A DNA stretch of 63,762 bases, filler included. It is 4 parts of 4 records of this genome, joined end to end, with 100 filler letters (N's around TTAATTAATTAA, not from the genome) between each part and the next. Parts side by side here need not be neighbours in the genome. Positions count along the whole stretch, not along the records: positions 1 to 21,347 come from DRR378314_635; 3 more parts are not named here. One strand, 5' to 3'. A program made the position numbers and the translations under genes. The notes beneath the pieces were generated by a model that was not told the DNA's origin, ran no database searches, and worked only from the letters and a program-made list of their open reading frames with translations. Positions 1,176 to 43,992 of this stretch are shown piece after piece (positions within the stretch are counted from its first letter, which is position 1; every line of letters begins with the position of its first letter).

Positions 1176-2261
1176 CTAGTTGTTCAGCGTGTTGTAGACC
1201 AGGGTGGACATATCGGTCTGGTCCGAACCGGGCACTTCGATGTACCGGTCACCAGAACCCCAGAACTTCCACCAAGGGCGCTGGTTGTATGTGCGGCTGG
1301 CGAAATCGACGCGCAACCCGTTGAGCGTTGTGTTGTTCACCACGGGTACCGAGATGTTTCCGGTTTCCGACCCCAGAACGCCGCTATGGGAAGCCCCTTC
1401 GTTCATCAGGATCGGGAAGTGGTTGTAGTAAAGCGCCGAGGGGCCATCCTGGCTTGACACCTTGCCCGCCAGGCTCAGGTTCGAACTGCAGGAGTCGATG
1501 CCGTTACTGGTGGTGGCGCCACAGGCGGAGTGGGTGGGTACCACGCCGTCGTCGGTCCCGGAAATAAAGGGCTTGGTGATGCCGCCATAGGACGAGCCGC
1601 CGGCCACAAACCGCAGTCGCGGAATGTTGTTGGGGCTGACGGCAAGGTTGCGTGCGGCGTTGGTCTGCAGATCATTAACGACGCCGAGGCTACCTGGCTC
1701 TGGGTTGATGCCGGTGAAGGCTCGAACCGCCTGTTTGAGTGGCCAGTTGTACCAGCTGTCGTTGTAGGCAACGCTCAGGGCCAGGTCGGCCAGTTCGGTA
1801 CCACCACCGGCTCCGGAGTAGTCGATCGACGCTAGTATTTTCAGCGGCTGCAATCCGTCAGCCTGAAGCCAGCGGGCCTGATTTTCCAGGAGGTAGCGGG
1901 TGACCAGGTCGCCTGTGGAATGGGACACCACAATGCAGAAATCGTTGCACAGCCCCTGTTGGCTGATGTCTCGCAACTGCTGATAGGCCTGCTGGGCGAT
2001 ATTTCCTTCTACCCGGCCATCGCTGCCCCAGTCTACGCGGGCATCGGAACGGGACAGCCAGAAGGTGCGCCAGTAGTCTTCGCCAGCACTCTTGACCTCG
2101 CTGAGGTTGGCGGGTGGATCGGCCAGGTCTTCCTGCTGGAAACCGTGAACCAGGATCACGTTGTGGCCAGCAAGCTGGGCCTGGGCGGTGCCGGCGAACA
2201 CCCCGCCGGCTATGGCGACCGCAAGAGCGGTCTTACAGGCACTTCTCTTTCTTGTTTTCAT
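1176..2261 (-). CDS. secreted alpha/beta-hydrolase (lipase-like)
   Basis: Signal peptide ending AQA, oxyanion motif VILVHGF, nucleophile elbow SHSTG, DDGVVP, and a late His (SHSG). Confidence 0.75.
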   Translation of the reverse strand: MKTRKRSACKTALAVAIAGGVFAGTAQAQLAGHNVILVHGFQQEDLADPPANLSEVKSAGEDYWRTFWLSRSDARVDWGSDGRVEGNIAQQAYQQLRDISQQGLCNDFCIVVSHSTGDLVTRYLLENQARWLQADGLQPLKILASIDYSGAGGGTELADLALSVAYNDSWYNWPLKQAVRAFTGINPEPGSLGVVNDLQTNAARNLAVSPNNIPRLRFVAGGSSYGGITKPFISGTDDGVVPTHSACGATTSNGIDSCSSNLSLAGKVSSQDGPSALYYNHFPILMNEGASHSGVLGSETGNISVPVVNNTTLNGLRVDFASRTYNQRPWWKFWGSGDRYIEVPGSDQTDMSTLVYNTLNN

Positions 2262-2290
2262 AAAGGCTCCGTCTTTGTTTTATTGTTGTA

Positions 2291-3361
2291 TCAGAACTTG
2301 TCTGCCAGCTTTTGCAGCAGCGCAGCACGTTGTTCTGATTCTGGATCACCAGCCGGGCTGTCGGTCAGACCGTCCAGATCCGGTGGCGAAAACGAATAGC
2401 CATCCTCAGGGCCAAAGCCATAGTCGGTGCGGTCACCGGGCGAGGCGGGCAATCGCCGGATCTGCAGGTTGCGCAGTTCCAGGTTGCCAGTGATCTCGCG
2501 AGGGGCCAGCACCGAGCCGTGGGCTTTGAGCTCCAGGGTGTCGGTGGTGCCGTCGAGTCGCCGCTCCGTCTGCAGCTGCGCGAGAGCGCCACCGTTGTGG
2601 TAAAGCTGAGCGGAGAGGGCGTAAAAACCGGGCTCTTTGGCATCGAAAAGAACCGGTATGATCAGGTCGTTGTTGCTCACCCGCGGGTCTCCCAAGCCAT
2701 CGAATTCCCCCAGGTCCGGCTCGATGGTCAGGGTGGACGCGTGACGCACGGGTTTTCCGTCAATGCTCGCTTCCACGATCAAACGGTATTCACCAGGGTC
2801 TGCGTCTGCCGCTATGACCCCTTCATAGTACGGGCCACCTGATTCGTTCGTGAGGGTGGCACTGGCAAGCGCCTGGCGGGATTCCGCCGACTCAAGGGTC
2901 GCATCCAGGCTTTGCCCCACCACCTGCGAGCCGGTAATACTCGCTGCCACCAGGATGTCTTCCTCCTGAACGAACCGGTATTTCTCAAGCGTGACGGTAA
3001 ACCGGCCACCTCCATCGAGCGGAAGTTCTACGGGATCGAAGCGATTGCCGGCATAGGCCCTGGCCTGGTCTTCAGAAATGGGAATGGAGTAGGTGGGGTA
3101 GCGTATGTTCTGTTGATACTCGGCTGCGGCACTGGCAAGCATGAAGCCAACCGCATCGTTGGAAGGCTCCGTCTTCTCCGGCACCGGTGGCGATACCGGT
3201 TCCGATTGCGGCCGGGCATTGTCTGTTTCAGGCGGCGGAGGGCTAGGGTCTTCGCGGGTTATCCAGGAAAACCGGGCCGTGTTATCAGCCGACAGAAGGT
3301 ACCCCAGGCCAACGGCGCCGGACACAGTGACTAGTAGGGCCAAGAGCAACCGAAGTGGCAT
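2291..3361 (-). CDS. hypothetical N-terminally membrane-anchored periplasmic protein, co-oriented upstream of the lipase
   Basis: N-terminal hydrophobic helix, Pro-rich linker, then acidic beta-rich body; 29-bp gap to the lipase gene. Confidence 0.7.
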   Translation of the reverse strand: MPLRLLLALLVTVSGAVGLGYLLSADNTARFSWITREDPSPPPPETDNARPQSEPVSPPVPEKTEPSNDAVGFMLASAAAEYQQNIRYPTYSIPISEDQARAYAGNRFDPVELPLDGGGRFTVTLEKYRFVQEEDILVAASITGSQVVGQSLDATLESAESRQALASATLTNESGGPYYEGVIAADADPGEYRLIVEASIDGKPVRHASTLTIEPDLGEFDGLGDPRVSNNDLIIPVLFDAKEPGFYALSAQLYHNGGALAQLQTERRLDGTTDTLELKAHGSVLAPREITGNLELRNLQIRRLPASPGDRTDYGFGPEDGYSFSPPDLDGLTDSPAGDPESEQRAALLQKLADKF

Positions 3362-3509: not shown

Positions 3510-4112
3510 TCATAGCCAACCGGACTCTTTCACGGCTTCCAGGCCGAATCTGAGTCGAACGGCATCCCCCACGAGGTCCTGATCGATGCCGTAGGTCATG
3601 CCCCATTCGCTGCGCTTGATGGTGGTTTCGGCGGTCATGCCGAGGGTGTAGTCCTCGTGGCCGATCGGGTATTTGGCGGATTTGTTAAGGGTCACGTCTA
3701 CCTCCACCGGGCGGGATTTGCCCAGTAGGGTCAGGTCGCCGATCACAATCCCGGTGTTGTCGCCGGTGGATTCGAAACCGGTGATCTCAAACGTGATATC
3801 CGGAAATTTCCCGCTGTTGAGAAAATCCTCGTTGCGCAGGTGGCCATCCCGCTTTTCGTGGTTGGTGAACACGCTCTTGCTTTTGAAGGTCAGCGTGCCG
3901 GAGGTCACCTGTTGGGTTTCCTCGTCGTACTCGAATTGTCCTTCCACATCCCGAAACATGCCCATTACCGGCGCGTAGCCAATGTGGTTTACTTCAAACG
4001 ACATCGAAAAATGCTCATCATCAATGACGTAGGTTTCCGGCTCGGCCACCGCACCGGGCGCAGTCAGTACCAGCGAAGCGGCCAGTGCTGTGGTTGATAG
4101 CAACGTCTTCAT
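3510..4112 (-). CDS. YceI family lipid/polyisoprenoid-binding periplasmic protein
   Basis: Likely start MKTLLSTT at 4112; signal peptide; motifs YVIDDEH, RDGHLRNEDFL, GDLTLLG, IKRSEWGM. Start overlaps the stop of the upstream gene (ATGA). Confidence 0.9.
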   Translation of the reverse strand: MKTLLSTTALAASLVLTAPGAVAEPETYVIDDEHFSMSFEVNHIGYAPVMGMFRDVEGQFEYDEETQQVTSGTLTFKSKSVFTNHEKRDGHLRNEDFLNSGKFPDITFEITGFESTGDNTGIVIGDLTLLGKSRPVEVDVTLNKSAKYPIGHEDYTLGMTAETTIKRSEWGMTYGIDQDLVGDAVRLRFGLEAVKESGWL

Positions 4113-4834
4113 GTCTGTCTCCCTGTTTGATAAAGCCAGCGCAGATCTGTAAAAAACGAATAGCAGAGCAGCGCCAGCGCGATCGCGAGTGTGACAGCTG
4201 CAAAGCTGGCCGGTGTAACCGGCAGTATGGCAATCATCAGAGTAACCACCTGCCACACACAAACGGTTTTACGACGAAAGCTGTCGGGTAGCGGCCGCTC
4301 CATGAAACGAAACCAATGGCCCGCGGCAACAAAGGCGTATCGCATCAACCCCAGTGCCAGAACCCATGGGCCTGCCTTGTCCTGGCCAAGAACCGCAACG
4401 CACAGTCCGAGAATGAACAGGGCGTCCAACTCCATGTCGAACCGGGCGCCAAACGCCGTCGTGGAATGGGTAGCCCTGGCGATGGCGCCATCCACGCCGT
4501 CAAGAATCAACGCCAGTAAACAGAGAGACCCGTACAGCCATAGCCAGTTCCCCAGGTTTGCACTGAACGGCGCCAGGCTGGCCAGGACGATGACCAGGGA
4601 GGCACGCACCAGGGTTGCACGATTAGCCCAGCCGAGGTCAAATCCTGCTGGCCAAAAGTGCATGACGGGCACTGCGATCGCAATGCTGAGCACGATGGCG
4701 AGCGCATAAAAGCCAATCGGTGGTTGGAATCCGATACCGGTTGAGGCCACCATGAGCGCCGTCAGAACGCCACACCAGGCAAGATCGAGCGCCAAAGGCA
4801 AGCGGAACGTGTGGGATCGGGAATCCATCATCAA
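4109..4834 (-). CDS. CDP-alcohol phosphatidyltransferase family protein
   Basis: Signature D-G-V-D-G-A-I-A-R...F-G-A-R-F-D-M-E-L-D, upstream 'ANRATLVR', multiple TM helices. Confidence 0.9.
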   Translation of the reverse strand: MMMDSRSHTFRLPLALDLAWCGVLTALMVASTGIGFQPPIGFYALAIVLSIAIAVPVMHFWPAGFDLGWANRATLVRASLVIVLASLAPFSANLGNWLWLYGSLCLLALILDGVDGAIARATHSTTAFGARFDMELDALFILGLCVAVLGQDKAGPWVLALGLMRYAFVAAGHWFRFMERPLPDSFRRKTVCVWQVVTLMIAILPVTPASFAAVTLAIALALLCYSFFTDLRWLYQTGRQT

Positions 4835-4901
4835 ACACCAGCGTATGAATGTGCGTGTATCTACTATAGTGAATTACGTGCGCTGTAAGGAAACAGACGA
4901 T

Positions 4902-5900
4902 ATGACAAAGGCATTTTGGGTTACCGGGCCCGGGGAAGGGGTCATTCGCCCAGCGACTTATAATCACTGCCTGGCGGAAGGTGACGACACGCCAGCCGTG
5001 GCGGTTCGGGCGCTATTCTCCGGTGTCAGCCGCGGTACCGAATCGCTGGTATTCAACAACCGTGTGCCCCCCTCTGAATACGATTCAATGCGCGCCCCTT
5101 TTCAAGAAGGGGATTTCCCATTTCCGGTCAAGTACGGCTATGCCAGCGTTGGCCGCGTGGTGTCCGGCCCCGATTCCCTGGCCGGACAGTCGGTTTTCTG
5201 CCTGTTTCCCCATCAGGACCAGTATCAGGTCCCCGCATCCGCCGTTGTTCCCTTGCCGCACGGCCTCCCGGAATCCAGAGCGGTATTGGCCGCCAACATG
5301 GAAACCGCCGTTAACGGTCTTTGGGATGCCTCACCAAGAGTGGGGGATCGGATTGCGGTGGTCGGCCTCGGGGTCGTCGGTCTGTTGGTTGCGTGGCTGG
5401 CCAGTCGCATACCGGGTACTCGCGTTACCGCCGTCGATATCAACCCGCACCGGAAAGCGATCGCGCAATCCCTGGGGCTGGATTTCCAGACCCATTGCGA
5501 CCAGGACGATCACGATCTGGTCATCCATGCCAGCGGTCATCCGACAGGGCTTGACGCCGCTCTTGCACTGGCGGGGCAGGAAGGTCGGATTATTGAAATG
5601 AGCTGGTATGGCGAGCAGCCCGTGCCGGCATCCCTGGGCCGTGCATTCCATTCCCGTCGGCTGACGATCCGGTCAAGTCAGGTTGGCAACCTTCATCCCG
5701 AGCAGCGACCGCGCTGGTGCTACCGGGACCGAATGTCGCTGGCCCTGGAACTATTGCGGAATGATGTCCTGGATCTTCTGATCAGTGGTGAAACCGACTT
5801 TGAATCGCTGCCGGAGGTTATGCCAGCACTTGCTGCAAACGGGGCAGGCGGAATGGCCGCCGACACCCTGTGCCATCGCATTGTATACCCGGAAAACTGA
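4902..5900 (+). CDS. medium-chain dehydrogenase/reductase (zinc-binding ADH-like family)
   Basis: Likely start MTKAF at 4902 after AAGGA; SGVSRGTE and YGYASVG at the positions of the usual Zn-ligand motifs; Rossmann VGLGVVG. Confidence 0.85.
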   Translation: MTKAFWVTGPGEGVIRPATYNHCLAEGDDTPAVAVRALFSGVSRGTESLVFNNRVPPSEYDSMRAPFQEGDFPFPVKYGYASVGRVVSGPDSLAGQSVFCLFPHQDQYQVPASAVVPLPHGLPESRAVLAANMETAVNGLWDASPRVGDRIAVVGLGVVGLLVAWLASRIPGTRVTAVDINPHRKAIAQSLGLDFQTHCDQDDHDLVIHASGHPTGLDAALALAGQEGRIIEMSWYGEQPVPASLGRAFHSRRLTIRSSQVGNLHPEQRPRWCYRDRMSLALELLRNDVLDLLISGETDFESLPEVMPALAANGAGGMAADTLCHRIVYPEN

Positions 5901-5932
5901 CTCCCATTATCTGCAACGAGGACCCACAACGC

Positions 5933-6331
5933 ATGTTCAGCCTTACCGTCAGAGACCATATGATGATCGCCCACAGCTTTAACGGTGACATTTTCGGCCC
6001 CGCCCAGGGCCTTCACGGTGCCACCTATGTGGTCGATGTCACCTTCGAGCGGGAAGCCCTCGACAGCGACGATCTGATTGTCGATATCGGGTTGGCCTCC
6101 GAGGTTTTGTCGTCGGTCGTTGCTGAGTTCAATATGAAGAACCTTGACGATATCGAGGAATTCTCCGGGCGCAATACCACGACCGAGTTTATGGCTGTGA
6201 CGGTGTTCGAACGGATGGCTGCAGCCATTCGCCAGGGCCAACTGGGCGAAACCGGCAAAGGCCTGTGTGCCATGAAGGTCACCCTTGGCGAATCCCATAT
6301 TGCGTGGGCCAGCTACCATGGCAAACTCTGA
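5933..6331 (+). CDS. 6-pyruvoyl-tetrahydropterin synthase / QueD-like (COG0720) protein
   Basis: Likely start MFSLTVRDHMMIAHSF at 5933; T-fold motifs AHS, FGPAQGLHGATY, NTTTE, LGES. Lacks the Cys-x3-HGH of canonical QueD. Confidence 0.85.
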   Translation: MFSLTVRDHMMIAHSFNGDIFGPAQGLHGATYVVDVTFEREALDSDDLIVDIGLASEVLSSVVAEFNMKNLDDIEEFSGRNTTTEFMAVTVFERMAAAIRQGQLGETGKGLCAMKVTLGESHIAWASYHGKL

Positions 6332-8264
6332 GCCGCTGACGTCGGTGTTGTTCGTTGTTCCGGGCGACCCGGAGCAGAAAACCGGCGGTTATCGGTACGT
6401 CCAACGGGTTGCCCGGGGGCTCAGGGACAATGGCGTGGCTGTGACAGTCACCGGCCTGCCTGGAAGCTTCCCCGTGCCCGACCGGATGGCAGAGGTAGAA
6501 ATGGATGCCCTGTTGGCAGACCTTCCGGACGATTCGGTGGTTGTGCTCGATGGGCTTGCCATGGGCGGCCTGCCGGATATCGTGGGGAGCCATGCCGCAC
6601 GCTTGCGGATGATATCCCTGGTTCATCATGCCCTCGCTGACGAAACGGGATTGCCCGAGGACGTTCGTGACTGGCTCATGCGGGTTGAGCGCAGGGCACT
6701 GTTCCACGTGACCGGAGTGATCACCACCAGTGAACACACGGCAACGCGGTTAAGGGATTTTGACGTACCGGCCGCCGCGATTCGGGTGGTGGAACCAGGC
6801 GCCGACACTGTCGTCAGCTATGGCGCTTCAGCGCCTCCCGCGAAAACAACGGAGGGGTGCCTGAACCTGCTCTGCGTCGCCCATCTCTCGAAGCGCAAAT
6901 CACAGCACCACCTTGTAGAAGCCCTGGACGGTCTCAGGAAGTACGCGTGGCATTGCACCCTCGCAGGTTCCGTGGATCGCGACGAGGACTATGGTCGCCA
7001 AATACTCGGTATTGTCCAGAACCTGGGGCTTGAAGACCGGATCAGTCTGGCGGGGGAACTGGATGACCGGGAACTGGCCAGGGCCTACCATGAGGCGGAT
7101 GTATTCGTGCTGCCGTCGGTCTATGAAGGGTACGGAATGGTCATTGATGAGGCGATTGCGGCGGGCTTGCCGGTGATCACCAGCGATGGTGGCGCCCTCG
7201 CCAGAACCGGTTGCAGGCCCGGTGTGCGGCAGTACCCGGCCGGCGACGTGCCGGCGCTCATGCGCTGCCTGGAAGACTGGCTGACAAACCCGGATGCCTT
7301 GGATGAGGCGACTGCCCAGGCACGGCAGGCCTCGGGTTCACTTCGAAGCTGGCAGAGCACAGCGAACGCCTTCCAGAGCGCACTGCAGGAGCTGCTGCCA
7401 CCACCCGACCCGACTACGTTCGACAGTCACTGGCTGGCGCTGCGTGAGCCGGCGGATCATCGGGCCCGCAATAGGAACCTGCTCTCGGAGGTGCAGGCGT
7501 GGGCGGAGAGGGACTACTGTTGCCCGGACGCCCTGAGTGGTCATCACGCATCGCCACTGCTCATTGCAGACCTCGGTACGGGCACCGGCTCCAACGCCCG
7601 TTATCTCGTACCGGCAATGACCGTGCCGCAGCGTTGGGTGTTGCTGGACCAGGATGAACATCTTCTGTCCATTGCCCGGGAGCGCCTGGACCATCTGGAC
7701 GTCCCTGTGGAAACCCACACCTGCCACCTGAGTGCCACACGGCTTGCCGGGCAAATTCCGGATGGAACCCGATTGCTCACAGCCTCGGCGCTGATTGACC
7801 TGATGTCCGAAGAGTGGCTCGACGCATTGGCGGCCGCCGCCGCCAGAAGCGCTGCCGGCGTATTTATTGTATTGAGCTACGCCGGGGGCTTTGAGTTGTC
7901 ACCCCAGGACCGGGACGACCACTGGATACGCGACACCGTAAACAGGCACCAGCACAGCGATAAGGGCGCTGGTGCCGCTCTGGGCCCCTCAGCGACCGGC
8001 TATCTCAAGCAACAACTGAAGGACCGGGGCTATCAGGTATCCGTGGCGCCAAGTCCATGGCAACTGGCAACAGGCGAAGACGCCCTGCAGCGAGCCTTGC
8101 TCGAGGGATGGCGAGAGGCGGTGATGCAGCAGGAGCCAGGCGCACATGAGCGTGCAGAGCGTTGGTTTGCGCTACGCCTTAAACAGGCTGAGGAACAACG
8201 GTTATCGATTCGGGTGGACCACGAAGACCTGTTCGCCCGGCCGTCCGTCCCAGGCCTGTCCTGA
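6318..8264 (+). CDS. fusion of a GT4 glycosyltransferase and a class I SAM-methyltransferase-like domain
   Basis: N-half has TGGYRY and 'VFVLPSVYEGYGMVIDEAIAAGLPVI' (GT4 ExxGxxxxE); PPPDP linker; C-half has 'WLALREPADHRAR' and 'DLGTGTGSN' (motif I). Confidence 0.85.
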   Translation: MANSEPLTSVLFVVPGDPEQKTGGYRYVQRVARGLRDNGVAVTVTGLPGSFPVPDRMAEVEMDALLADLPDDSVVVLDGLAMGGLPDIVGSHAARLRMISLVHHALADETGLPEDVRDWLMRVERRALFHVTGVITTSEHTATRLRDFDVPAAAIRVVEPGADTVVSYGASAPPAKTTEGCLNLLCVAHLSKRKSQHHLVEALDGLRKYAWHCTLAGSVDRDEDYGRQILGIVQNLGLEDRISLAGELDDRELARAYHEADVFVLPSVYEGYGMVIDEAIAAGLPVITSDGGALARTGCRPGVRQYPAGDVPALMRCLEDWLTNPDALDEATAQARQASGSLRSWQSTANAFQSALQELLPPPDPTTFDSHWLALREPADHRARNRNLLSEVQAWAERDYCCPDALSGHHASPLLIADLGTGTGSNARYLVPAMTVPQRWVLLDQDEHLLSIARERLDHLDVPVETHTCHLSATRLAGQIPDGTRLLTASALIDLMSEEWLDALAAAAARSAAGVFIVLSYAGGFELSPQDRDDHWIRDTVNRHQHSDKGAGAALGPSATGYLKQQLKDRGYQVSVAPSPWQLATGEDALQRALLEGWREAVMQQEPGAHERAERWFALRLKQAEEQRLSIRVDHEDLFARPSVPGLS

Positions 8265-8265
8265 C

Positions 8266-9195
8266 GTGTCTCGCCTGCACCAATCCCCGTATCTTCGGTG
8301 GTGTATCACTCTGATACTGCTGCTGGCCACAGCTTACTTCCTGGATCTGTCGGTTCTCTGGCAGGAACTGGCCCAGTTCTCCTGGCTTGCGTTGTGGGCG
8401 GCCATGGGGGTTTCCGTCGTGCAGGTGCTGCTGTCGGCCTGGCGTTGGTGCTATACGGCCCGTCGGCTGGACCTGGCATTGCCCATGCCGGTGGCGGTCC
8501 GGGAATACTATCTGGCCACCTTCCTCAATCAGGTGCTCCCGGGCGGCGTGTTGGGTGACGTTAACCGGGCATGGCGTCATGGTCTCGACTCGGGTGCCCG
8601 CCTTGCCTCGCTGCACGCGGTCATGATCGAGCGCCTGTCTGGCCAGTTGGTGATGACGGCGGTCGCGCTAAGCCTGGGAGGCTGGCTTGCCTGGTCTCGG
8701 GACGAGGTGCGAGGGGCCTTCTCCGGTGTGGGAGAGCTCATTTTACTGATGCTGGCGGGTTTGGTAGCCGGCGTTTTGTTGCTGCCACGGCTTTGGCAGC
8801 GGGCGAGACGTTATGTTCAAGCCCTGCGTCGGGACCTTCAAAGGGCGCTGTTGCAGTGGCCGGCCCTGGGTGTGCAGATGGTCTCGTCTGCCGGCGTGGT
8901 CGCCAGTTACCTGGCTGTGTTCTCGCTACTGGCGCTTGGGGCGGGGTACTGGAGTGACGCGGCCACGGCGGTGGTTCAGGTCTCGCTGTGCAGCCTGCTT
9001 CTGCTGGTCATGGCCATTCCGGTGTCCGTCGCAGGCTGGGGGGTGAGAGAAGGCGCCGCAGCGGTGCTTTGGCCCCTGGCAGGGTTGCCGGCAGAGCAGG
9101 GTGTTGCGCTCAGTGTTGGCTATGGGGTAGCGGTGTTGCTGTCCAGCCTTCCCGGAGCGTTCTTCGTGTTCACCCGTCAGCAGCAGAGTGGCTGA
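8266..9195 (+). CDS. lysylphosphatidylglycerol-synthase TM domain (flippase-like, UPF0104) protein
   Basis: GTG start 1 bp after previous stop; motifs 'AWRW', 'FLNQVLPGGVLGDVNR', 'ERLSG', 'PVSVAGWGVREG'. Confidence 0.85.
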   Translation: MSRLHQSPYLRWCITLILLLATAYFLDLSVLWQELAQFSWLALWAAMGVSVVQVLLSAWRWCYTARRLDLALPMPVAVREYYLATFLNQVLPGGVLGDVNRAWRHGLDSGARLASLHAVMIERLSGQLVMTAVALSLGGWLAWSRDEVRGAFSGVGELILLMLAGLVAGVLLLPRLWQRARRYVQALRRDLQRALLQWPALGVQMVSSAGVVASYLAVFSLLALGAGYWSDAATAVVQVSLCSLLLLVMAIPVSVAGWGVREGAAAVLWPLAGLPAEQGVALSVGYGVAVLLSSLPGAFFVFTRQQQSG

Positions 9196-10042
9196 AATCC
9201 AGATCAAATAACATGTCGCTGCCCAGATCCATCATCTGAGCCTTCGGGCGCAGGGCCCGGTCCAGCTTCTTGATTTCGGGCAATGAAAACGCGGGGCGCC
9301 CACTGCCGATGATCATCGGGGCAACCATGACGTGAAGCCGATCGAGCAGGTCCGCGTTCAGGAATTCAGACACCGTAAGCCCGCCGCCTTCCACAAATAC
9401 CTTGCGAAGGCCAAAGTCCGCGAGAACGGCGATGATATGGGCTGGGTCCGTAGTGTCATCCTTTCCGAGGCAGGGTACGTCGGTTACACCCTGTCGCGGA
9501 GTCAGCCTGTCACCGGGGTGGTAATCCCCGGCGACAAGGCGGAGAGTGGGTGAGGCTTCGTCGCTGAACAGATGGTGGCTGTCCGGTACCCGGTGGTTTC
9601 GATCAATCACCACCCGAACGGGATTTACCCCGGACGCTTTGCGGACGGTCAGCCGGGGGTTATCGGCGGAGGCGGTTCCCGCACCCACAATGACGGCTTC
9701 CGACACAGCCCTTAACCGATGAAGGTGGGTAATGCCGTCTTCACCGTTGATGAACTTCGAAGCACCGGTGACCGTCGCGATACGCCCATCCAGGCTCTGC
9801 CCCATCTGGCCGATCACCCGCGAGCGCGAACCCTGGGCGACCGGGCAGCATAAAGGCAGGAAAATCGACAGCAGGTTCCTTGCTTCAAGGTCCGCCGGCA
9901 TCCTGAGCGCCCACTCGCCGTCCTGGCCAATATCAAGTGCCGGCTTGTCACTGCCTGGCAATGAGAGTGTCACATTGCTGCGGTTCACTGCGTCGAGTAC
10001 CAGCTCCCATGCGGTGTGTTTATCCAGTGCCTTTGCCGCCAT
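9170..10042 (-). CDS. RibD C-terminal domain reductase (no deaminase domain)
   Basis: Motifs GQSLDGRIAT, VGAGT, DNPRLTVR, VEGGG, APMIIGSG. Convergent on the LPG-synthase gene with 26-nt 3' overlap. Confidence 0.85.
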   Translation of the reverse strand: MAAKALDKHTAWELVLDAVNRSNVTLSLPGSDKPALDIGQDGEWALRMPADLEARNLLSIFLPLCCPVAQGSRSRVIGQMGQSLDGRIATVTGASKFINGEDGITHLHRLRAVSEAVIVGAGTASADNPRLTVRKASGVNPVRVVIDRNHRVPDSHHLFSDEASPTLRLVAGDYHPGDRLTPRQGVTDVPCLGKDDTTDPAHIIAVLADFGLRKVFVEGGGLTVSEFLNADLLDRLHVMVAPMIIGSGRPAFSLPEIKKLDRALRPKAQMMDLGSDMLFDLDFSHSAADG

Positions 10043-10175: not shown

Positions 10176-10592
10176 ATGCGGTACCTGCAAACCTTTAACC
10201 GCCGCCTGCGGCAGATTCGGGAAGCCGGGCAATTGTCCTGCGGGGACGTGGCGGAAATGTGTGGCGTGGACGAAGCTCGTGTTCTCAGTTGGGAGTCCAC
10301 GGACGCAAGGCAGCGGGCATGGCCAGGGGTCACCGAGTTGCTGGATTTCTGTCTTAAAACCGAAACCCCGCTGGAAGACTTGCTGGACCTTGACGACGCC
10401 GGCGACACCGGCCAGTTGGAGTTGCCTGGCCTGGCATTCAGTCAGGGCGATGACCTGGCGACGGCGCTGAAAGAGCTGGAAAAGGAAATCAGCCGGGTGC
10501 AGCTCTCCGAGGAAGAGGTAGAGCTGCTGCGCCGGTTCCGGAAAACCTCCACTGAAAACCGGCGCATGATCCTGCAGATCCTCGGCAAATAG
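10176..10592 (+). CDS. XRE-family helix-turn-helix protein
   Basis: N-terminal 'RLRQIRE...LSCGDVAEMCGVDEARVLSWE' HTH; C-terminal 'LSEEEVELLRRFR'. Confidence 0.75.
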   Translation: MRYLQTFNRRLRQIREAGQLSCGDVAEMCGVDEARVLSWESTDARQRAWPGVTELLDFCLKTETPLEDLLDLDDAGDTGQLELPGLAFSQGDDLATALKELEKEISRVQLSEEEVELLRRFRKTSTENRRMILQILGK

Positions 10593-11800: not shown

Positions 11801-12976
11801 TTGAGACACTCCCTGTTGTTCGCACTTGTTTGGTGCGTACTCAGCCAACCCCTACACGCCGAATCTTCGGGCTCCTGGCTCCGTAATGGCTGGAAGCCCT
11901 ACGCGGATAATTTTGCGGGCCGTGCCGATGCATTCCGTGATGAGCGTGAACACTGGTTGAAGTCCCGGCTGAAATTTTCAGGCAAAACCTCCCTGAACAG
12001 CGACGGCCTGGATGGCGACATTGGCGTCTCGGCCGACAGCCTCGTCGGCAGTAGTGACGCGATCGGATTCCACTATCGCGATGCCCGGTCCCACATAAAC
12101 AGCTCAGACGCGAGCGCTACGTCGTTTCGCTACCGCTTCCCGGCCGGTGCCAATCAGGTCACCCTGGAAACCGGAAGCTCTTATTACCAACACGCCGTGA
12201 CCAGTGGCGACAGGCGATACAGCGCCAGTGGGGAGTCCAGCATCGTAGGCGTGGGTGCCAGTCGGCCCTTATTCTCAAAGTTCGGCCTGGCCTTTGACGG
12301 CATTGCCCGCCATACCGGTCAGGATAGCCGCGCCCTTGAAGAGGGGAGCCTGGTATCCGAGAGTCGTTATGAGTTGTCTTCCGTCGGTGTAAAGGCGCAG
12401 GGCGGCCATGAACTCTGGAAGGGATTGCAGGCCAACACCGGCATTCTTGCCGTCAGCGGTCGTGAATACAGCGCCACGGATTACCGGTTGCAGGACGATG
12501 TCGGCCGTGAGGACGAATTCTACAAAGTCGCCATGTCCGCCTCGCTTGAGCAGGAGCTTTATCGCTGGCGCTGGCGGATTCACGGCCGTTACCAGTTTGC
12601 GGATGAAGATCTCCCGGTATCGGAGTACCTCACCGTGGCTGGTCCCTCCATGATGGCGGGCTTTAACGGCCAGTCGGTGTCGGTGGTACGCGGTGGTTGG
12701 CTGCGCATGGACACGGCCAGCCCGTCCTGGCCGATGCCGTTTATGGACGGTGTGCTCTCCAGCTTGAATGTTGCGGTACTGCATGGCTGGGTGCCCAATA
12801 CAGCGATGCAGGCAGACCGCTATGGGCGGGCCTGTGCCGGCCAGGTGTCCCTCACGTTGAAGGGGCGGGCGTTCTCGGCCGATGTCAGCGTTGGTCGGAT
12901 GATCAGCGCGTCCAGCATGGCCATGACCATGCCCGAACGCCCGGACGTTCGATTCTCCCTCACCATGGGCATTTGA
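11801..12976 (+). CDS. ShlB/FhaC/HecB (TpsB)-like outer-membrane beta-barrel, apparently without POTRA domains
   Basis: TTG start with signal peptide, alternating beta-strand pattern, 'YQFADEDLPVSEYLTVAG...MAGF' resembling the TpsB loop-6 region, C-terminal FSLTMGI. Confidence 0.55.
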   Translation: MRHSLLFALVWCVLSQPLHAESSGSWLRNGWKPYADNFAGRADAFRDEREHWLKSRLKFSGKTSLNSDGLDGDIGVSADSLVGSSDAIGFHYRDARSHINSSDASATSFRYRFPAGANQVTLETGSSYYQHAVTSGDRRYSASGESSIVGVGASRPLFSKFGLAFDGIARHTGQDSRALEEGSLVSESRYELSSVGVKAQGGHELWKGLQANTGILAVSGREYSATDYRLQDDVGREDEFYKVAMSASLEQELYRWRWRIHGRYQFADEDLPVSEYLTVAGPSMMAGFNGQSVSVVRGGWLRMDTASPSWPMPFMDGVLSSLNVAVLHGWVPNTAMQADRYGRACAGQVSLTLKGRAFSADVSVGRMISASSMAMTMPERPDVRFSLTMGI

Positions 12977-13088: not shown

Positions 13089-14642
13089 ATGCATTCAGGG
13101 AAACGATGGCTGATAGGTTTGGTATTGCCGGGGCTGCTCTACGCCCAGGCAGTGGGGGCGCTTGAGTTCACCGAGATTGTGGATAAGGCGAGAGCAAAGG
13201 CCGAAGGCGAATATCAGCCGCCACCAGCGGTGCCCGGGTTCCTGAGAAACCTGAGCTACCGTGATTACCAATCCATCCGTTTCAATCCGCAAGCCAGCCT
13301 TTGGCGTGAAGGCCGCTCCCGATTCCAGGTAATGATGGTGCCTCCCGGAAGCTACTACACCCACACGGTCACGTTGAACGAGGTGGATGCCGATGGTGTC
13401 AAGCCAATACCGTTCGACAAGTCCGAATTCAGCTTTCCAAACCCGGAACTCGCCAAAAGGGTTCCCGCAGACCTGGGGCATGCGGGCTTCAAACTAACGT
13501 ATCCGATGGGAGACGGCGAGGAACAGAACCAGTTTCTGGTGTTTGCAGGGGCCAGTTACTTCCGCGCCGTCGGTGCGGATAACCACTTCGGCCTGTCGGC
13601 GCGAGGAATTGCCATTGATACCGGCCTGCCGTCGGGCGAGGAAGTGCCATCGTTTGTTGAATTCTGGCTCGAGCGGCCAGGAGGCGGCAGTGACCGCATG
13701 CGTGTCTATGGTCTGCTGGATGGTCCCAGCGTGACGGGGGCCTACCGCTTCGACATTCAGCCCGGCCCAACCACACGTATCGATGTCACAGCGGAACTGT
13801 TCTATCGCAATCCGGTGGATCAACCGGGGATGGCACCGCTGACGTCCATGTTCTACTACGGCGAGAATTCCGGCATGCCCCCGGGTGAGTGGCGACCGCA
13901 GGTGCACGATTCCAGCGGGCTATTGATACACGATCAGGGAGCCGAAGAGTGGTTGTGGCGTCCATTGGTCAATCCATCGCGCCTCAGGCTGAGCTATCTG
14001 CAGGTTGATCGCCTGGCTGGGTTCGGGTTGATGCAGCGGGACACCGAGTTCCATCAGTTTGAAGACGCCGAGGCGCGATACGACAAGCGGCCCAGTGCCT
14101 GGGTTGCGCCACGGCAGGGATGGTCCAATGGTGAGGTCGTGCTGGTAGAAATCCCGACAGACGCGGAGACAAACGACAACATTGTGGCTTTCTGGAAACC
14201 CAAGGAGCCCGTGCAGAAAGGGGATCACCGGTCGTTTGCCTATAGCCTCCATTTTGGCGATCAGGACGTATCCCGCCAGGACACCGGGCGGGCATTGCAA
14301 ACGTTTGTGGGTGACGGGAATCGCCCCGGAGGCGGATCGGAAGAGGGGGCCTATCGGATCATTGTGGATTTTGATGGCGGTCCTCTGGACAACCTCAAGC
14401 CCAATGCCGCCCTTGTCAGTAAGGTCAGTGAAGGAAGCGGCAATAGCGACGCTGTTGAAATCCTGGAACATTTCGTTGAGTACGTTGAGGCAGACGGAAC
14501 CTGGCGCCTGTCGATGCTGGTTCGCCCGGTGGGTGAGGGAGACGCGGTGCTGCGGGGGCAACTGTTGCTCGATAACAAGCCGCTGACCGAGACCTGGACT
14601 TACTCCATTGGCCCGGATTCCGGGTTTGGCCAGAATCAGTAA
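13089..14642 (+). CDS. opgG: glucan biosynthesis protein G
   Basis: Sec signal; LSYRDYQSIRF, FAGASYFRA, FGLSARGIAIDT, RPQVHDSSGL, ETNDNIVAFW, TETWTY. Confidence 0.92.
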   Translation: MHSGKRWLIGLVLPGLLYAQAVGALEFTEIVDKARAKAEGEYQPPPAVPGFLRNLSYRDYQSIRFNPQASLWREGRSRFQVMMVPPGSYYTHTVTLNEVDADGVKPIPFDKSEFSFPNPELAKRVPADLGHAGFKLTYPMGDGEEQNQFLVFAGASYFRAVGADNHFGLSARGIAIDTGLPSGEEVPSFVEFWLERPGGGSDRMRVYGLLDGPSVTGAYRFDIQPGPTTRIDVTAELFYRNPVDQPGMAPLTSMFYYGENSGMPPGEWRPQVHDSSGLLIHDQGAEEWLWRPLVNPSRLRLSYLQVDRLAGFGLMQRDTEFHQFEDAEARYDKRPSAWVAPRQGWSNGEVVLVEIPTDAETNDNIVAFWKPKEPVQKGDHRSFAYSLHFGDQDVSRQDTGRALQTFVGDGNRPGGGSEEGAYRIIVDFDGGPLDNLKPNAALVSKVSEGSGNSDAVEILEHFVEYVEADGTWRLSMLVRPVGEGDAVLRGQLLLDNKPLTETWTYSIGPDSGFGQNQ

Positions 14643-14657
14643 AGCGGGGATTTGCTC

Positions 14658-14915
14658 ATGCCGGACACCTCATGTCAGCGGGCGCTTGAGAGGGTGCTGA
14701 CGTATCTGCGCGATGACGGTGTTGTACTCGATGCAGGCGCCTGTCGACAGGTATTGCGCCTCGTGGAGCGTGCCATGATCGAAGGCGATGGATCAGACCT
14801 GCCCGCTCGCTGTATCGAGCGTGTGTCAGAGTATTTTGAGCGGCCTGCCATGGAAATTCCGCCATCCACTCCGCCCCTTGAGCGCGGCCACCTGGGGTAC
14901 TATCCCTATGAATGA
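14658..14915 (+). CDS. small hypothetical protein between opgG and opgH
   Basis: About 85 aa, in operon, stop overlaps the opgH start; ends with Pro-rich 'PPSTPPLERGHLGY'. Confidence 0.65.
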   Translation: MPDTSCQRALERVLTYLRDDGVVLDAGACRQVLRLVERAMIEGDGSDLPARCIERVSEYFERPAMEIPPSTPPLERGHLGYYPYE

Positions 14916-17019
14916 GGCCGTCAACACCGGTGTTCAGGTGCGCCCGGGAAACTGGCGTCGCGTTGCCACCGTGCGGCGCTTTTTCCTCACGTTGTTTGTG
15001 GTGGGGCAAACGGTCATCGCCAGTTATTTCCTGCTCTGGATTCTGCCGTACCACGGTGGAACATGGGTGGAACTCGGCCTGCTGGGTCTGTTCATCCTTC
15101 TTTACATGTGGATTGCGGTGGGTTTCTGGACCGCAGTCTTCGGGTTCGTGCTCAGGCTGATCGGCGGTGACCGGCACAGTCTTCTCAAGCGGCATCCGAA
15201 GTCGCAACTCGAAAATACGGCACTGGCCAAAACCGCCATTGTTATGCCTATCTACCACGAGCCTGTCCAATGGACGCTGAGCGGGTTGAAGGCGGTCTAT
15301 CAGGACATTGAACGGACGGGCCATCTGGAGCAGTTTGAATTCCATATTGTCTCCGACAGCCGAGACCCGAACGTCTGGCTTGAGGAGCAGGCGGAGTGGC
15401 ACCGATTGTGCGAAGAGCTGGGGGCGGAAGGCCGGCTTTTCTATCGCCGCCGGCGGGTGAATCTCAATTTCAAGAGTGGCAACGTCGCGGATTTTCTGCG
15501 GCGTTGGGGGCGCCGCTACCGATACATGGTGGTGCTGGATGCTGACAGCCTGCTCAGTGCGGGAACCATTGTCAAAATGGTTCAACTGATGGAGCAGGAA
15601 CCCAGCGTAGGTATCTTGCAGACCGCCCCCACCATCATCAACGGTGAGTCACTGTTTGCCCGCGTGCAGCAGTTTGCAAACCGTCTGTATTCCTCCCTGT
15701 TCGCCACCGGCCTGGCGGCGATCCAGATGGGCGATGCGGCGTTCTGGGGACACAACGCCATCCTGCGTGTCGAGCCGTTCATGGCGCATTGCGGCCTGCG
15801 AAAGTTGCGGGGGTTCGGTCTGTTCCGTGGGCCCATCATGAGTCACGATTTCGTGGAAGCTGCCTACATGGGCCGTGCCGGTTACGAGGTGTGGCTGGAG
15901 CCTGAGCTAGGCAACAGTTTTGAAGAATCACCTCCAACCATCTCCGATGAGCTCTCCAGGGACAACCGCTGGTCCAGGGGCAACCTGCAGCATCTCTGGA
16001 TTTTACTGTTCGAGCGAAAGCTACGCCTGGCCCACAGGATGGCGCTGCTTAACGGCATTATGGCGTATCTGGCGTCGCCACTCTGGCTGGGATTCCTGAT
16101 TCTGACGACGGTTGAAGCCGTACAGATGACGGTCGCCAGCATCAATTATTTCCCGGAAGGGCACCAGGGGCTTTTCCCCCTATGGCCCGAATGGCGGCCT
16201 GAGTGGGCCATCGGGCTTGCGTTGAGCACCCTGTCATTGCTGTTCCTGCCGAAATTCCTGGCCATTTTCGACGCGGCCATTCACGGTCTTGCCAGGGGGT
16301 TTGGCGGCGTGTGGCGACTGTTCACGAGTGTCCTGCTGGAAATCGTGGTATCGGTCCTGCTGGCGCCGGTCCGGATGATGGCGCACAGCCGATACGTGCT
16401 GGGTGCCCTTCTCAACGTTTCACTGTCCTGGGCTGGCCAGAACCGCACCGAGGAGACCACATGGCGGGACGCTTTCCTTACTCAGTTTCCGGGCATGCTC
16501 GTTGGTGCTGGCTGGTCCGCCTTCGCCTGGAGCCTGGACCCCATGTTCTTCCTGTGGTCACTGCCCGTCGCGGTGCCCCTGGTCCTGGCGGCGCCGACGT
16601 CAGTGGTGCTGAGCCGTGTAGGGCTGGGCCGCGCATTCAGGCACAGACATCTTCTGGTGATTCCGGAAGAACTGACGCCGGTTGACGTCTTGCACGATGC
16701 GAGGAGCGCAAGGGCCGCGAGTCATGGTGACTCTCTGATCACCGCTGTAGAAGCGGCCGTCATCCGGCCCAGATTGAACCGCCTCCACCTGGCGCTGGCG
16801 CGGGAACATCGGCAGCCCAAGAGGGCGGAATTGCTTGCGCCATTGGTCGCCCGGATTGCGGATAAGGGGCCAGATTCGCTCTCCCGCCGCGAGCTCAGCC
16901 AGGTATTCCGTGATCGCGCTGCGCTTGCGGAGCTGCACCAGTTGGCCTGGCGTTCGCCCCCGGAAAGTTTCTGGGGAAGACGGATATCCAGTCTGGGAAA
17001 GGACCGGTCTGAACAGTAA
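14908..17019 (+). CDS. opgH: glucan biosynthesis glucosyltransferase H (GT2)
   Basis: Likely start MNEAV at 14908; TAIVMPIYHE, KSGNVADF, VLDADS, SHDFVEAA, RWSRGNLQH, multiple TM helices. Confidence 0.95.
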   Translation: MNEAVNTGVQVRPGNWRRVATVRRFFLTLFVVGQTVIASYFLLWILPYHGGTWVELGLLGLFILLYMWIAVGFWTAVFGFVLRLIGGDRHSLLKRHPKSQLENTALAKTAIVMPIYHEPVQWTLSGLKAVYQDIERTGHLEQFEFHIVSDSRDPNVWLEEQAEWHRLCEELGAEGRLFYRRRRVNLNFKSGNVADFLRRWGRRYRYMVVLDADSLLSAGTIVKMVQLMEQEPSVGILQTAPTIINGESLFARVQQFANRLYSSLFATGLAAIQMGDAAFWGHNAILRVEPFMAHCGLRKLRGFGLFRGPIMSHDFVEAAYMGRAGYEVWLEPELGNSFEESPPTISDELSRDNRWSRGNLQHLWILLFERKLRLAHRMALLNGIMAYLASPLWLGFLILTTVEAVQMTVASINYFPEGHQGLFPLWPEWRPEWAIGLALSTLSLLFLPKFLAIFDAAIHGLARGFGGVWRLFTSVLLEIVVSVLLAPVRMMAHSRYVLGALLNVSLSWAGQNRTEETTWRDAFLTQFPGMLVGAGWSAFAWSLDPMFFLWSLPVAVPLVLAAPTSVVLSRVGLGRAFRHRHLLVIPEELTPVDVLHDARSARAASHGDSLITAVEAAVIRPRLNRLHLALAREHRQPKRAELLAPLVARIADKGPDSLSRRELSQVFRDRAALAELHQLAWRSPPESFWGRRISSLGKDRSEQ

Positions 17020-21347: not shown

Positions 21348-21447
21348 NNNNNNNNNNNNNNNNNNNNNNNNNNNNNNNNNNNNNNNNNNNNTTAATTAAT
21401 TAANNNNNNNNNNNNNNNNNNNNNNNNNNNNNNNNNNNNNNNNNNNN
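21348..21447. other. artificial contig spacer
   Basis: 44 N + TTAATTAATTAA + 44 N. Confidence 0.99.
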
Positions 21448-34872: not shown

Positions 34873-34943
34873 AATACTGTACAGTGACAGGGGAAGCCGA
34901 AAACCTAGAATAGAGTAGGCATTCACTTATAATACTTAACATT

Positions 34944-42707: not shown

Positions 42708-42807
42708 NNNNNNNNNNNNNNNNNNNNNNNNNNNNNNNNNNNNNNNNNNNNTTAATTAATTAANNNNNNNNNNNNNNNNNNNNNNNNNNNNNNNNNNNNN
42801 NNNNNNN
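42708..42807. other. artificial contig spacer
   Basis: 44 N + TTAATTAATTAA + 44 N. Confidence 0.99.
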
Positions 42808-42861
42808 CAAACAAACAAACAAACAAACAAACAAACATAAACAAACAGACAAACAAACAAA
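42808..42861 (+). repeat. (CAAA)n microsatellite at contig start
   Basis: Tandem CAAA with CATAAA and CAGA interruptions. Confidence 0.95.
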
Positions 42862-43103
42862 GAATATACACAATGCACCCGATGATACCGGCCGGGCGGA
42901 GCTGCACTCCACGGCCTTGCCGAGCTATGCCGCGCCAGTAAGCACTATTCAGCGCCAGCTGCTCCTATAGGTCCTCCCGAATGCGACAACAATACATTCT
43001 ATGTACATGTAGCCTACATTATTTATCCCTGAATTCACTAGACGATTGGTACATGAGCGGGTTGGACTGCGTGTTGCATGCATGGCTGGCGCACCATACG
43101 CAG

Positions 43104-43992
43104 GGGTCCTGGCTCGGCTACTTTGATATCGACGGAGAGCGCATGTGGAGCATTTCCAAGTGCGGAGGTACGTCCGAAAATGTTTCAGAACCAATTGTTC
43201 GAATACTCTTTCGAAGTCCCAGTACAACAACAAGCTAAATGCAGTGTACAGTCGCACTCGGAAGGTACAGAATGCGCAAAGTAGCTGCACACTCTTATTC
43301 CCTTGCAGGTAGCTGGGCCACGTTCCGTCGCACGGAAACCACGCAGCGGAGCCCCCGCACAGCAGAAGTACCTGTCGTGCGAATCATCTGCCACAACACT
43401 AGACCCTGGAGTACCAACAACTTACATGTACATCTACTATGAAGGGCGACGGACAGAATATGTCGGCGACGCTCCGCATCCTCCGTATGAGCCGCCATCG
43501 TATCGCTTCCTACCAAAACTGCACCGCATCCATGGGTTTTCTGTCCGCGTCTCCTACCTCTGAGCAATCGGCGCTTGTTCCTTGCTGCACCACGCGAAAT
43601 TTTCGCCTCTCACAGACTTTGCGAAACCCATCCCTGTTGAACAACCGCTTCGCTCTGATTCGCGGTATCGAGAAGACCTCCAGTCGCTCATACGAGGGAA
43701 CAAAGATGAGGCACAAAAGGTACAAGTGCGCCGTTGCAAAGCACAGCCAAATGTCCTTCTGGCGAGCTGCACCTGTACGCGATTCGTCGCCCAGTGCGGG
43801 GGACCTGTGTCCCCTCCGCCTATTCCAAGCCAATTGAAGCGATCAGACTCGCACTAATGCGCGGTGACCATTGGTTCTTACGTACAAGCAATGGCGATGA
43901 TGCTGTGACACAACGATATGCAGGCAAAAGAACTTATCGAAAATGCCCAGCGCCGGGACGCACGGCTCCGCCAGAAAGCAATGCGCTCCTGA
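43104..43992 (+). CDS. oxysterol-binding protein (OSBP/ORP) family, last three exons
   Basis: GT-AG exons 43104-43167, 43616-43719, 43924-43992 join in frame to GSWLGYFDIDGERMW...PLRSDSRYREDLQSLIRGNKDEAQKAKELIENAQRRDARLR, the ORP C-terminal signature. Confidence 0.85.

Follow-up and report, generated by a model that had tools for sequence, protein, structure and literature searches.

A reduced PTPS-IV gene cluster of Marinobacter and its proposed link to a lipid-borne heterocycle and periplasmic glucans

The DNA analysed here (hereafter, the window) is a stretch of 63,762 nucleotides composed of four unrelated contigs. Its first part, positions 1–21347 (record DRR378314_635), is a Marinobacter contig, and it carries the locus of seven genes that is the subject of this work. 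Marinobacter algicola is the closest named relative (93% identity of the PTPS protein). Three relatives were compared at the DNA level and proved to be 81–84% identical over 20 kb; all genome-wide statements below derive from genomes of relatives, the three tested being of this degree of identity. The seven genes are as follows.

3510–4112, minus strand: YceI-family periplasmic protein, lipid/polyisoprenoid-binding, 200 amino acids, signal-peptide-like N-terminus (PF04264, E = 2e-40)
4109–4834, minus strand: CDP-alcohol phosphatidyltransferase, about five transmembrane segments (PF01066, E = 1e-14)
4902–5900, plus strand: MDR-family dehydrogenase, BchC-like (PF00107, E = 7e-9)
5933–6331, plus strand: PTPS-IV protein of the T-fold family COG0720 (PF01242, E = 7e-22)
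6318–8264, plus strand: fusion of a GT4 glycosyltransferase and a class I SAM methyltransferase, 648 amino acids (PF00534, E = 1e-23; PF13649, E = 8e-6)
8266–9195, plus strand: LPG_synthase_TM protein, MprF-flippase-like, about six transmembrane segments in a transmembrane scan (PF03706, E = 2e-33)
9170–10042, minus strand: stand-alone RibD-C reductase, no deaminase family matched (PF01872, E = 1e-37)

All seven open reading frames (ORFs) are free of internal stops, and each matches its named family in Pfam. The stop of the CDP-alcohol transferase gene overlaps the yceI start in an ATGA, the PTPS and GT4 genes share 14 bases, and the LPG_synthase_TM (LPG-TM) and RibD-C genes converge with an overlap of 26 bases. 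An initial annotation of this DNA had read the locus as a pathway to an unidentified pterin- or ribityl-derived glycosylated lipid or cofactor handed to YceI; the families it named, the ATGA coupling and the overlapping 3′ ends are all present in the sequence. When compared with the three relatives, all seven genes gave dN/dS values of 0.03–0.24 (controls: EamA, 0.07–0.08; GalU, 0.005). All seven are genuine, uninterrupted genes maintained by purifying selection. Neither GTP cyclohydrolase II (GCH-II) nor creatininase nor an LtaS-like gene was found in the window. In the ESM Atlas, searches brought up no proteins outside the clusters of the queries themselves, and counts of sigma-70 promoters and terminators at the locus were near chance.

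Spread of the cluster and its synthesis enzymes

To describe the gene context, we counted neighbours within 8 kb in the best 80 of at least 416 confirmed PTPS relatives; contig ends cut several of these loci, which lowers the counts. The MDR gene was found in 79 loci, GT4 in 77, the CDP-alcohol transferase in 73, the methyltransferase and RibD-C in 69 each, LPG-TM in 57, YceI in 40, GCH-II in 31 and creatininase in 24, with an LtaS-like gene (21) and FkbM (9) as rarer companions. The co-location of the seven families is more than chance. The core synteny spans Gammaproteobacteria, Alphaproteobacteria, Acidobacteriota and Actinomycetota, and a Haloarcula plasmid bears creatininase, the CDP-alcohol transferase, MDR, PTPS, GT4 and the methyltransferase.

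We assigned 27 of the 80 loci to a Marinobacter type; for three, labelled only Pseudomonadota, gene order was the criterion. These had no GCH-II and no LtaS-like gene (0/27 each) and a single creatininase gene (1/27); GT4 was fused to the methyltransferase in 24/27 as against 0/53 of the others, and YceI was present in 25/27 as against 15/53. The survey proposed in the initial annotation, with GCH-II and creatininase as expected companions, gave a positive answer outside Marinobacter, where they occur in 31/53 and 23/53 loci, respectively. Among 191 Marinobacter genomes, PTPS-IV was detected in 125, the CDP-alcohol transferase gene in 124 and both in 120; PTPS-IV was also found in 130 of 221 sampled Halomonadaceae. 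Judged by these comparisons, the Marinobacter locus is a reduced variant of a widespread PTPS-IV cluster of the SCO6650 type: it differs from the SCO6650-type neighbourhood in lacking GCH-II and creatininase, in having GT4 and methyltransferase fused and YceI added, and in that the LtaS-like gene lies elsewhere in the genome. New are this reduced architecture, the loss of both GCH-II and creatininase across the genus, and the test of transferase retention in two families, described below.

At a locus of Marinobacter halodurans (L050, 5400–12100), creatininase is kept, GCH-II and LPG-TM are lost, and GT4 and methyltransferase are unfused; this locus, in which we see an intermediate stage of the reduction, comes from a genome that gave no match to the transferase described below. 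In some other Marinobacter (L041, 8001–8399; L241, 9789–10193; L242, 9834–10238), PTPS stands without the rest of the cluster, adjoined by a helix-turn-helix (HTH) gene, and may have a stand-alone use there. A Streptomyces plasmid (L100, 9001–9426) also carries PTPS-IV without the cluster, next to a MEKHLA-domain gene and cupins.

That the Marinobacter locus is a decaying relic whose first enzyme is gone seems to us extremely improbable. The loss of GCH-II and creatininase and the three PTPS-only remnants would fit such a decay, but the dN/dS values of 0.03–0.24 and the joint presence of PTPS-IV and the CDP-alcohol transferase in 120/191 genomes argue against it. A weaker point in the same direction is that RNA-library contigs from two studies span the cluster of a relative continuously, with patchy cover at the mdoG end; RNA and DNA are not separable in these data.

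The PTPS protein carries the FGPAQ signature within the sequence HSFNGDIFGPAQGLHGAT, and FGPAQ recurs in 80/81 relatives. It matches SCO6650 of Streptomyces coelicolor (PDB 3D7J) over its full length (E = 1e-48). It lacks the catalytic Cys, and H14, H28, E85 and E120 are invariant in the alignment; E85 we take to be part of the T-fold ring-binding motif. The motifs CxxxHGH, CxxxxxHGH and ExxHGH of QueD/PTPS-I and PTPS-II/III are absent from the alignment, and the QueD model TIGR03367 was not reached (39.6 vs. 89.25 bits). The subfamily motifs are those defined in the available text of PMC5445326 and PMC5041015; the former gives FGPAQ as the PTPS-IV signature, with PF00925 and PF01872 as neighbours. 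By its sequence, then, the protein is a member of PTPS-IV, as the initial annotation had held. Of the two published neighbours, the RibD C-terminal domain is here (9170–10042) and PF00925 is not; the latter is a tendency rather than a sequence criterion, and its absence marks the reduced variant. PTPS-IV, reportedly defined by Phillips et al. in 2012, has had no settled function since its definition, yet it is common in Marinobacter and Halomonadaceae and occurs in actinobacteria and haloarchaea too.

The other putative synthesis enzymes are less telling. The MDR protein has BchC as its best NCBIfam match (E = 2e-14, below cut-off) and lacks the usual catalytic motifs that presumably provide the zinc ligands. 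For the methyltransferase domain, a sequence search of solved structures found nothing; its model (pLDDT 96) matched class I methyltransferases in Foldseek (E = 2e-12), all generic, so that the fold gives no substrate clue.

RibD-C has monofunctional archaeal reductases as its best solved relatives (6p8c, E = 2e-25; 2azn, E = 1e-21). It bears Gln where the bifunctional RibD 8dq9 has Lys, presumably a substrate-related residue, and the phosphate-binding Arg motifs are well kept among relatives (H..RA in 57/65, D[ND]PxLxxR in 61/65, EGG in 65/65). The TIGR01508 cut-off was not reached (109.9 vs. 186.45 bits), and a second, housekeeping ribD is present in 5/5 Marinobacter genomes. We propose that RibD-C is a putative reductase of 2,5-diamino-6-ribosylamino-pyrimidinone 5′-phosphate (DARPP). 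In standing alone without a deaminase and in its similarity to 6p8c and 2azn, it resembles the archaeal/fungal DARPP reductases (ArfC/RibG, Rib7); as distinct from their riboflavin route, the cluster has no lumazine or riboflavin synthase, and the bifunctional ribD lies elsewhere.

The origin of DARPP was approached with the two-domain, cluster-type GCH-II as a query against the 191 Marinobacter genomes. Matches were obtained in 188/191, with a best E no better than 8e-54, and all 150 matches listed cover the catalytic domain only; the cluster-type enzyme was thus not found in 191/191 genomes. Four genomes that were inspected have a stand-alone RibA and RibBX-type genes without zinc cysteines, dxs adjoins ribA in both annotated contexts, and the Marinobacter RibA and RibBX proteins branch apart from the cluster GCH-IIs. 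Creatininase exceeded the cut-off in 3/191 genomes and was missing from 188. Since cluster-type GCH-II and creatininase are both missing, the housekeeping RibA must supply DARPP, in line with the earlier view that no GCH-II is at the locus and that the precursor comes from elsewhere. Creatininase-family enzymes can deformylate a riboflavin precursor (PMC9478397, available text); if canonical RibA gives DARPP directly, this step would be unneeded. We infer that the pathway starts from DARPP, which would be reduced without deamination. The minimal Marinobacter version would then show that the pathway needs neither a dedicated cyclohydrolase nor a deformylase, and would establish DARPP as its starting compound.

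For the Halomonadaceae, we considered a cluster GCH-II that halts at the formyl intermediate, but found no support for it: the Tyr of the RAY motif, which we assume to act in the formyl step, is kept in all cluster rows shown except L038. In Halomonadaceae and Wenzhouxiangella, the N-terminal domain of the cluster-type GCH-II, some 170 amino acids long, has no Pfam match (L043, 12104–12640).

We consider it very unlikely that the cluster is another way of making a flavin-type cofactor, be it F420, riboflavin or the like. PMC5041015, in its available text, cites unpublished work placing PTPS-IV in archaeal F420 synthesis, and the deformylating activity of the creatininase family (PMC9478397, likewise) would suit it. 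Against this, Marinobacter keep their housekeeping ribA and ribD, 66/191 Marinobacter species do without PTPS-IV, and such pathways have no use for genes of lipid transfer or a flippase. The cofactor half of the earlier claim is therefore the less likely one.

Lipid arm, remote transferase and periplasmic glucans

The motif DxxDGxxAR...GxxxDxxxD of the CDP-alcohol transferase is intact, as it is in 69/69 aligned relatives. With 20–30 bits, the protein stays below the NCBIfam cut-offs for PgsA, PssA, PIP synthase and DIPP synthase (107–580 bits). Motif and membrane topology both point to a CDP-alcohol phosphotransferase, and the neighbours that recur around the cluster included no cytidylyltransferase. 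The LPG-TM protein, with a flippase-like domain (TIGR00374, E = 2e-5, below cut-off), is proposed to be a flippase. The YceI of the cluster matches E. coli YceI (1y0g) at E = 3e-26.

In other lineages, the cluster is adjoined by a membrane protein that matches the sulfatases weakly and is encoded elsewhere in the genome in Marinobacter; in Kribbella, the CDP-alcohol transferase and this LtaS-like domain form a single ORF. The protein has N-terminal membrane helices followed by a catalytic domain, and E216, S264, H377, D453 and H454 are invariant in its alignment. A sequence search of solved structures found nothing, but fold comparison did: the model of a representative (L097, pLDDT 85) matched LtaP, LtaS, MCR-1 and EptA in Foldseek at E = 5e-10 to 3e-7. 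This modelled alkaline-phosphatase fold, together with the Glu/nucleophile/His/Asp-His metal site, identifies the protein as a probable head-group transferase of the LtaS/EptA/OpgB type. In E. coli, OpgB and OpgE carry out the phosphoglycerol and phosphoethanolamine substitution, respectively, of osmoregulated periplasmic glucans (OPGs). The transferase shares its layout with these enzymes, which are membrane-anchored and move phospholipid head groups to OPGs (PMC3818809, available text), and often lies beside mdoH or mdoD. It differs from them in having Ser at the nucleophile position, in occurring also without MdoH, and in its proposed donor, a purpose-made lipid rather than phosphatidylglycerol or phosphatidylethanolamine; no relevant NCBIfam match to OpgB/OpgE was obtained for 3/3 family members. 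It would thus work like OpgB without being OpgB.

The retention of the transferase follows the cluster. It was detected in 86/114 Marinobacter genomes having both the cluster and mdoH and in 3/77 of the rest, namely 1/15 with the cluster only, 2/31 with mdoH only and 0/31 with neither. Among the 221 Halomonadaceae, the corresponding figures were 127/129, 0/1, 0/26 and 0/65. In both groups the genomes are related. In Marinobacter, an mdoH paralogue lies no more than 1.8 kb upstream of at least 27 of the 89 transferase genes; the distance is up to 111 bases in 17 of them and 1.6–1.7 kb in 10, a gap occupied by mdoD in both cases checked. Eight of 20 hand-picked Halomonadaceae transferase loci adjoin mdoD or mdoH, four of these far from the cluster, and one contig presents transferase, mdoD, mdoH and the complete cluster as a single block. 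Furthermore, mdoH lies inside 8/53 non-Marinobacter loci, and also at the locus in Methylosinus and another alphaproteobacterium. Taken together, these associations point to periplasmic glucans as the acceptor of the putative transferase.

The initial annotation had made YceI the acceptor and end point. This is not upheld, because the LtaS/OpgB-fold transferase tracks the cluster far more tightly, YceI being present in 15/53 non-Marinobacter loci and replaced by cytochrome b561 in the importer variant described below. YceI, or cytochrome b561 in other lineages, would rather be an accessory, possibly redox-linked.

Several observations weigh against a glucan acceptor. The genomes are related and many are incomplete, so that the contingency tables overstate independence. 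Twenty-eight of the 114 Marinobacter with cluster and mdoH have no transferase, and 14 of the 15 with the cluster and no mdoH match also lack it and keep the cluster all the same; hence the lipid seems useful alone. No mdo gene is near 15/20 fetched Marinobacter and 12/20 Halomonadaceae transferase loci. The transferase occurs in Kribbella, where mdoH is missing, and is itself missing from Lamprocystis, where cluster and mdoH are both present; the Haloarcula locus offers only a short sulfatase-like protein, which does not align with the transferase family (probability 0.3%), so that OPGs are not a universal acceptor. The window itself carries a set of glucan genes:

13089–14642, plus strand: MdoG (OpgG) periplasmic glucan protein (PF04349, E = 1e-169)
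14788–17019, plus strand: MdoH (OpgH) glucan synthase (NF003958, E = 3e-262, above cut-off)
17049–18635, plus strand: MdoD/MdoG paralogue, 40% identical to the MdoG at 13089 (PF04349, E = 1e-205)

Their position three kb from the cluster is probably just ancestral gene order, because 31 cluster-free Marinobacter genomes also have mdoH. No link to the cluster was found in the papers on Caulobacter OPGs that were consulted.

These exceptions bear on the alternative that the pathway ends with the glycophospholipid that bears the heterocycle, which would serve the membrane as an antioxidant or UV screen, perhaps with YceI as its carrier, and that transfer to glucans is optional. This is closest to the view of the initial annotation, and we consider it rather unlikely. 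It is favoured by the 42 of 129 cluster-bearing Marinobacter without a transferase match, by the Haloarcula locus without a true transferase orthologue, and by the translational coupling of YceI to the CDP-alcohol transferase. It is opposed by the presence of the transferase in 127/130 Halomonadaceae bearing PTPS-IV vs. 0/91 without it, by the long importer loci, which keep the transferase in 26/29 and YceI in 3/29 cases, and by the occurrence of YceI in 15/53 non-Marinobacter loci.

We considered, and rejected, the possibility that one particular mdoH clade accompanies the cluster: the mdoH genes adjoining the transferase are 30–55% alike and fall in several deep clades. Many Marinobacter have a second mdoH paralogue, about 50% identical to that of the window, inserted together with the LtaS-like gene (L111, L112, L118, L120, L122) at a fixed chromosomal site, which in G001 and G003 lies between a hexapeptide-repeat gene and hsp20; in some Marinobacter this paralogue is the only mdoH found. 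Directly 5′ of mdoGHD in the window (11801–12976, plus strand) is a gene for a ShlB/FhaC-like outer-membrane protein (PF03865, E = 6e-19); a passenger gene to go with it was not seen.

Importer variant and proposed pathway

Plasmids of Dinoroseobacter, Paracoccus, Rhodobacter, Alloyangia and Roseicitreum carry the transferase together with the CDP-alcohol transferase gene, cytochrome b561 and an ABC importer, and also with GT4 (4/5), LPG-TM (3/5) and mdoH (2/5); a Streptomyces copy of the transferase stands alone. PTPS-IV is absent from 5/5 of these plasmids, the search having covered plasmids only. The importer binding protein belongs to PF09084 (NMT1/THI5), and its closest solved relative by sequence is an aminopyrimidine-binding protein (3ix1, E = 4e-8). 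This binding protein was met in 141 metagenomic loci, of which we used the best 80, close relatives (71–91% identity) rather than independent events; PTPS, MDR, methyltransferase, RibD-C, GCH-II and creatininase were found in 0/80. The 29 loci of at least 17 kb contained the CDP-alcohol transferase (29), GT4 (29), LPG-TM (27), the transferase (26), cytochrome b561 (23), mdoG/D (13), mdoH (12) and YceI (3). Among all 80, YceI (5) and cytochrome b561 (38) never occurred together. The GT4 and CDP proteins of these loci nest among the cluster orthologues. A search of 75 alphaproteobacterial genomes gave a single binding-protein match (35% identity), outside any such cluster.

Because the importer loci lack the synthesis genes, the pathway appears to split into a make module and a use module, and this split would place methylation before, and glycosylation after, an importable intermediate. 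RibXY-type systems import riboflavin or other solutes (PMC4418817, available text), and the family of the importer suggests that the intermediate keeps a ring. Two points weaken this argument: NMT1/THI5-type proteins carry other solutes too (PMC4418817, available text), with taurine-binding proteins among the matches, and the absence of PTPS-IV from importer genomes was established on plasmids and loci rather than whole genomes.

The same loci bear on two further alternatives. Known pterin glycosides (cyanopterin, tepidopterin) are made by a PTPS-fold enzyme, a reductase, a GT4 and a methyltransferase acting on a GTP-derived ring, and the resemblance of the cluster to these pathways favours a soluble pterin glycoside, with the membrane genes serving export or a separate lipid job. 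So do the Methylosinus and Lamprocystis loci, which have MDR, PTPS, GT4, methyltransferase and RibD-C without an adjacent CDP-alcohol transferase. However, those pathways begin with GTP cyclohydrolase I and their products are soluble, whereas the cluster is tied to GCH-II/RibD-C and to lipid enzymes; the CDP-alcohol transferase is present in 73/80 loci and 120/125 Marinobacter genomes with PTPS-IV, and in 29/29 importer loci GT4 accompanies the lipid genes rather than those for synthesis. A soluble glycoside is thus distinctly unlikely. We also give little credit to the ring being only a scaffold from which an aminoribitol- or sugar-type alcohol is released to become the lipid head group. CDP-alcohol transferases and OpgB-type enzymes do handle small polyols and amino alcohols, and PTPS-IV lacks the Cys of PTPS-I/II, but the substitute importer is of the aminopyrimidine/flavin-binding NMT1/THI5 family, and E85, presumably of the ring-binding motif, is invariant.

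In Dinoroseobacter shibae, the region Dshi_4162–4171 of plasmid pDSHI05 resembles the use module in having orthologous GT4, CDP-alcohol transferase, LPG-TM and LtaS-like genes beside mdoH and mdoG; it differs from the cluster in that an NMT1/THI5 ABC importer and cytochrome b561 stand in for YceI and the genes of synthesis. We mapped Dshi_4166–4170 to LPG-TM, the transferase, the CDP-alcohol transferase gene, cytochrome b561 and mdoH, taking LPOR and cybB as fixed points for the count of locus tags. According to the available text of PMC4373377, these five genes are light-induced and counted in the singlet-oxygen response, and light no longer aids survival once the entire replicon is lost. That phenotype concerns a 72-kb replicon that also carries LPOR, which weakens it as support for our proposal.

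The best reading of the locus is a GTP-derived, glycosylated, lipid-linked and flipped product of putative reactions. In the make module, the housekeeping RibA would convert GTP to DARPP in trans, RibD-C would reduce DARPP to the ribityl compound without deamination, and MDR, PTPS-IV and the methyltransferase would yield a compound X by oxidation, ring closure or side-chain change, and methylation. X would be a small, methylated compound that keeps the 2-amino-4-oxo-pyrimidine face; the preferred chemistry is oxidation at ribityl C2′ with closure to a pterin-type ring, and an open ribityl-aminopyrimidine is the alternative. In the use module, GT4 would glycosylate X, the CDP-alcohol transferase would join glycosylated X to CDP-diacylglycerol by phosphatidyl transfer, and LPG-TM would flip the lipid. 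The LtaS/OpgB-fold transferase, remote in Marinobacter, would then move phospho-sugar-X onto OPGs, the acceptor being made by MdoH, MdoG and MdoD, with YceI or cytochrome b561 as an accessory partner, possibly redox-linked. This whole sequence, from a DARPP-derived methylated heterocycle to its arrival on periplasmic glucans, is in our judgement evenly poised between right and wrong. The data show the genes, their families and motifs, modelled folds, co-occurrence and the division into modules; the chemistry, including every substrate and product and the order of steps inside each module, we infer. The role is possibly protection against oxidative or light stress. Accordingly qualified, the initial interpretation is supported in part.

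If right, this scheme would add a new class of phospholipid head groups and a new OPG substituent, and it offers a candidate explanation for the light-induced Dinoroseobacter operon; the transferase and importer evidence directs the search for the product to the lipid phase and to OPG spectra. In a more far-reaching version, which we regard as improbable, a route independent of GTP cyclohydrolase I (RibA, RibD-C, MDR oxidation and PTPS-IV ring closure) would give a methylated pterin-type compound that is shared through the dedicated NMT1/THI5 importer, glycosylated, carried on a new kind of glycophospholipid and grafted onto periplasmic glucans, forming a redox-active polymer that is recycled by cytochrome b561 or a YceI-bound quinone and protects the envelope from singlet oxygen. 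If true, a cofactor-like heterocycle would for the first time be placed on a phospholipid and on OPGs, and the compound would be a metabolite cross-fed from Marinobacter and Halomonas makers to Roseobacter users. The available text of PMC5445326 names only GCH-II and RibD-C as PTPS-IV neighbours and says nothing of a product or of an arm leading to lipids or glucans. A literature search, made mostly in the main text of open papers, likewise found neither a product of the cluster nor a connection to a lipid or to glucans.

Other features of the window

Downstream of yceI (1176–3361, minus strand) are two genes for proteins of 361 and 356 amino acids without Pfam or NCBIfam matches, the former with a lipase-like GxSxG-type stretch; they are conserved in 17/81 and 18/81 loci. 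Divergent from RibD-C (10176–10592, plus strand) is a gene for a small HTH protein, a possible regulator, which recurs in Marinobacter loci. Near the end of the Marinobacter contig, a citrate-synthase-family gene at 20418 is truncated by the first spacer. The N spacers (21348–21447, 42708–42807 and 56493–56592) carry a short linker, TTAATTAA.

The second contig (21448–42707) is of Bacteroidota type, with a GC content of 0.475. It has the conjugative-transposon genes TraG, TraM and DUF4138, together with RteC, an AraC regulator, a SusC/SusD pair, a Met-zincin and a DUF805b RNA motif at 34887–34921. The third (42808–56492; 13.7 kb) has few long ORFs and a steady A-over-T skew near 0.15; two ORFs tested gave no Pfam match, and the contig gave no Rfam match. 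It looks like non-coding, possibly eukaryotic DNA. The last contig (56593–63762) encodes a UvrD/Rep helicase, a cbb3-type cytochrome c, a GNAT protein, a response regulator with a sensor kinase, and a CBS protein.

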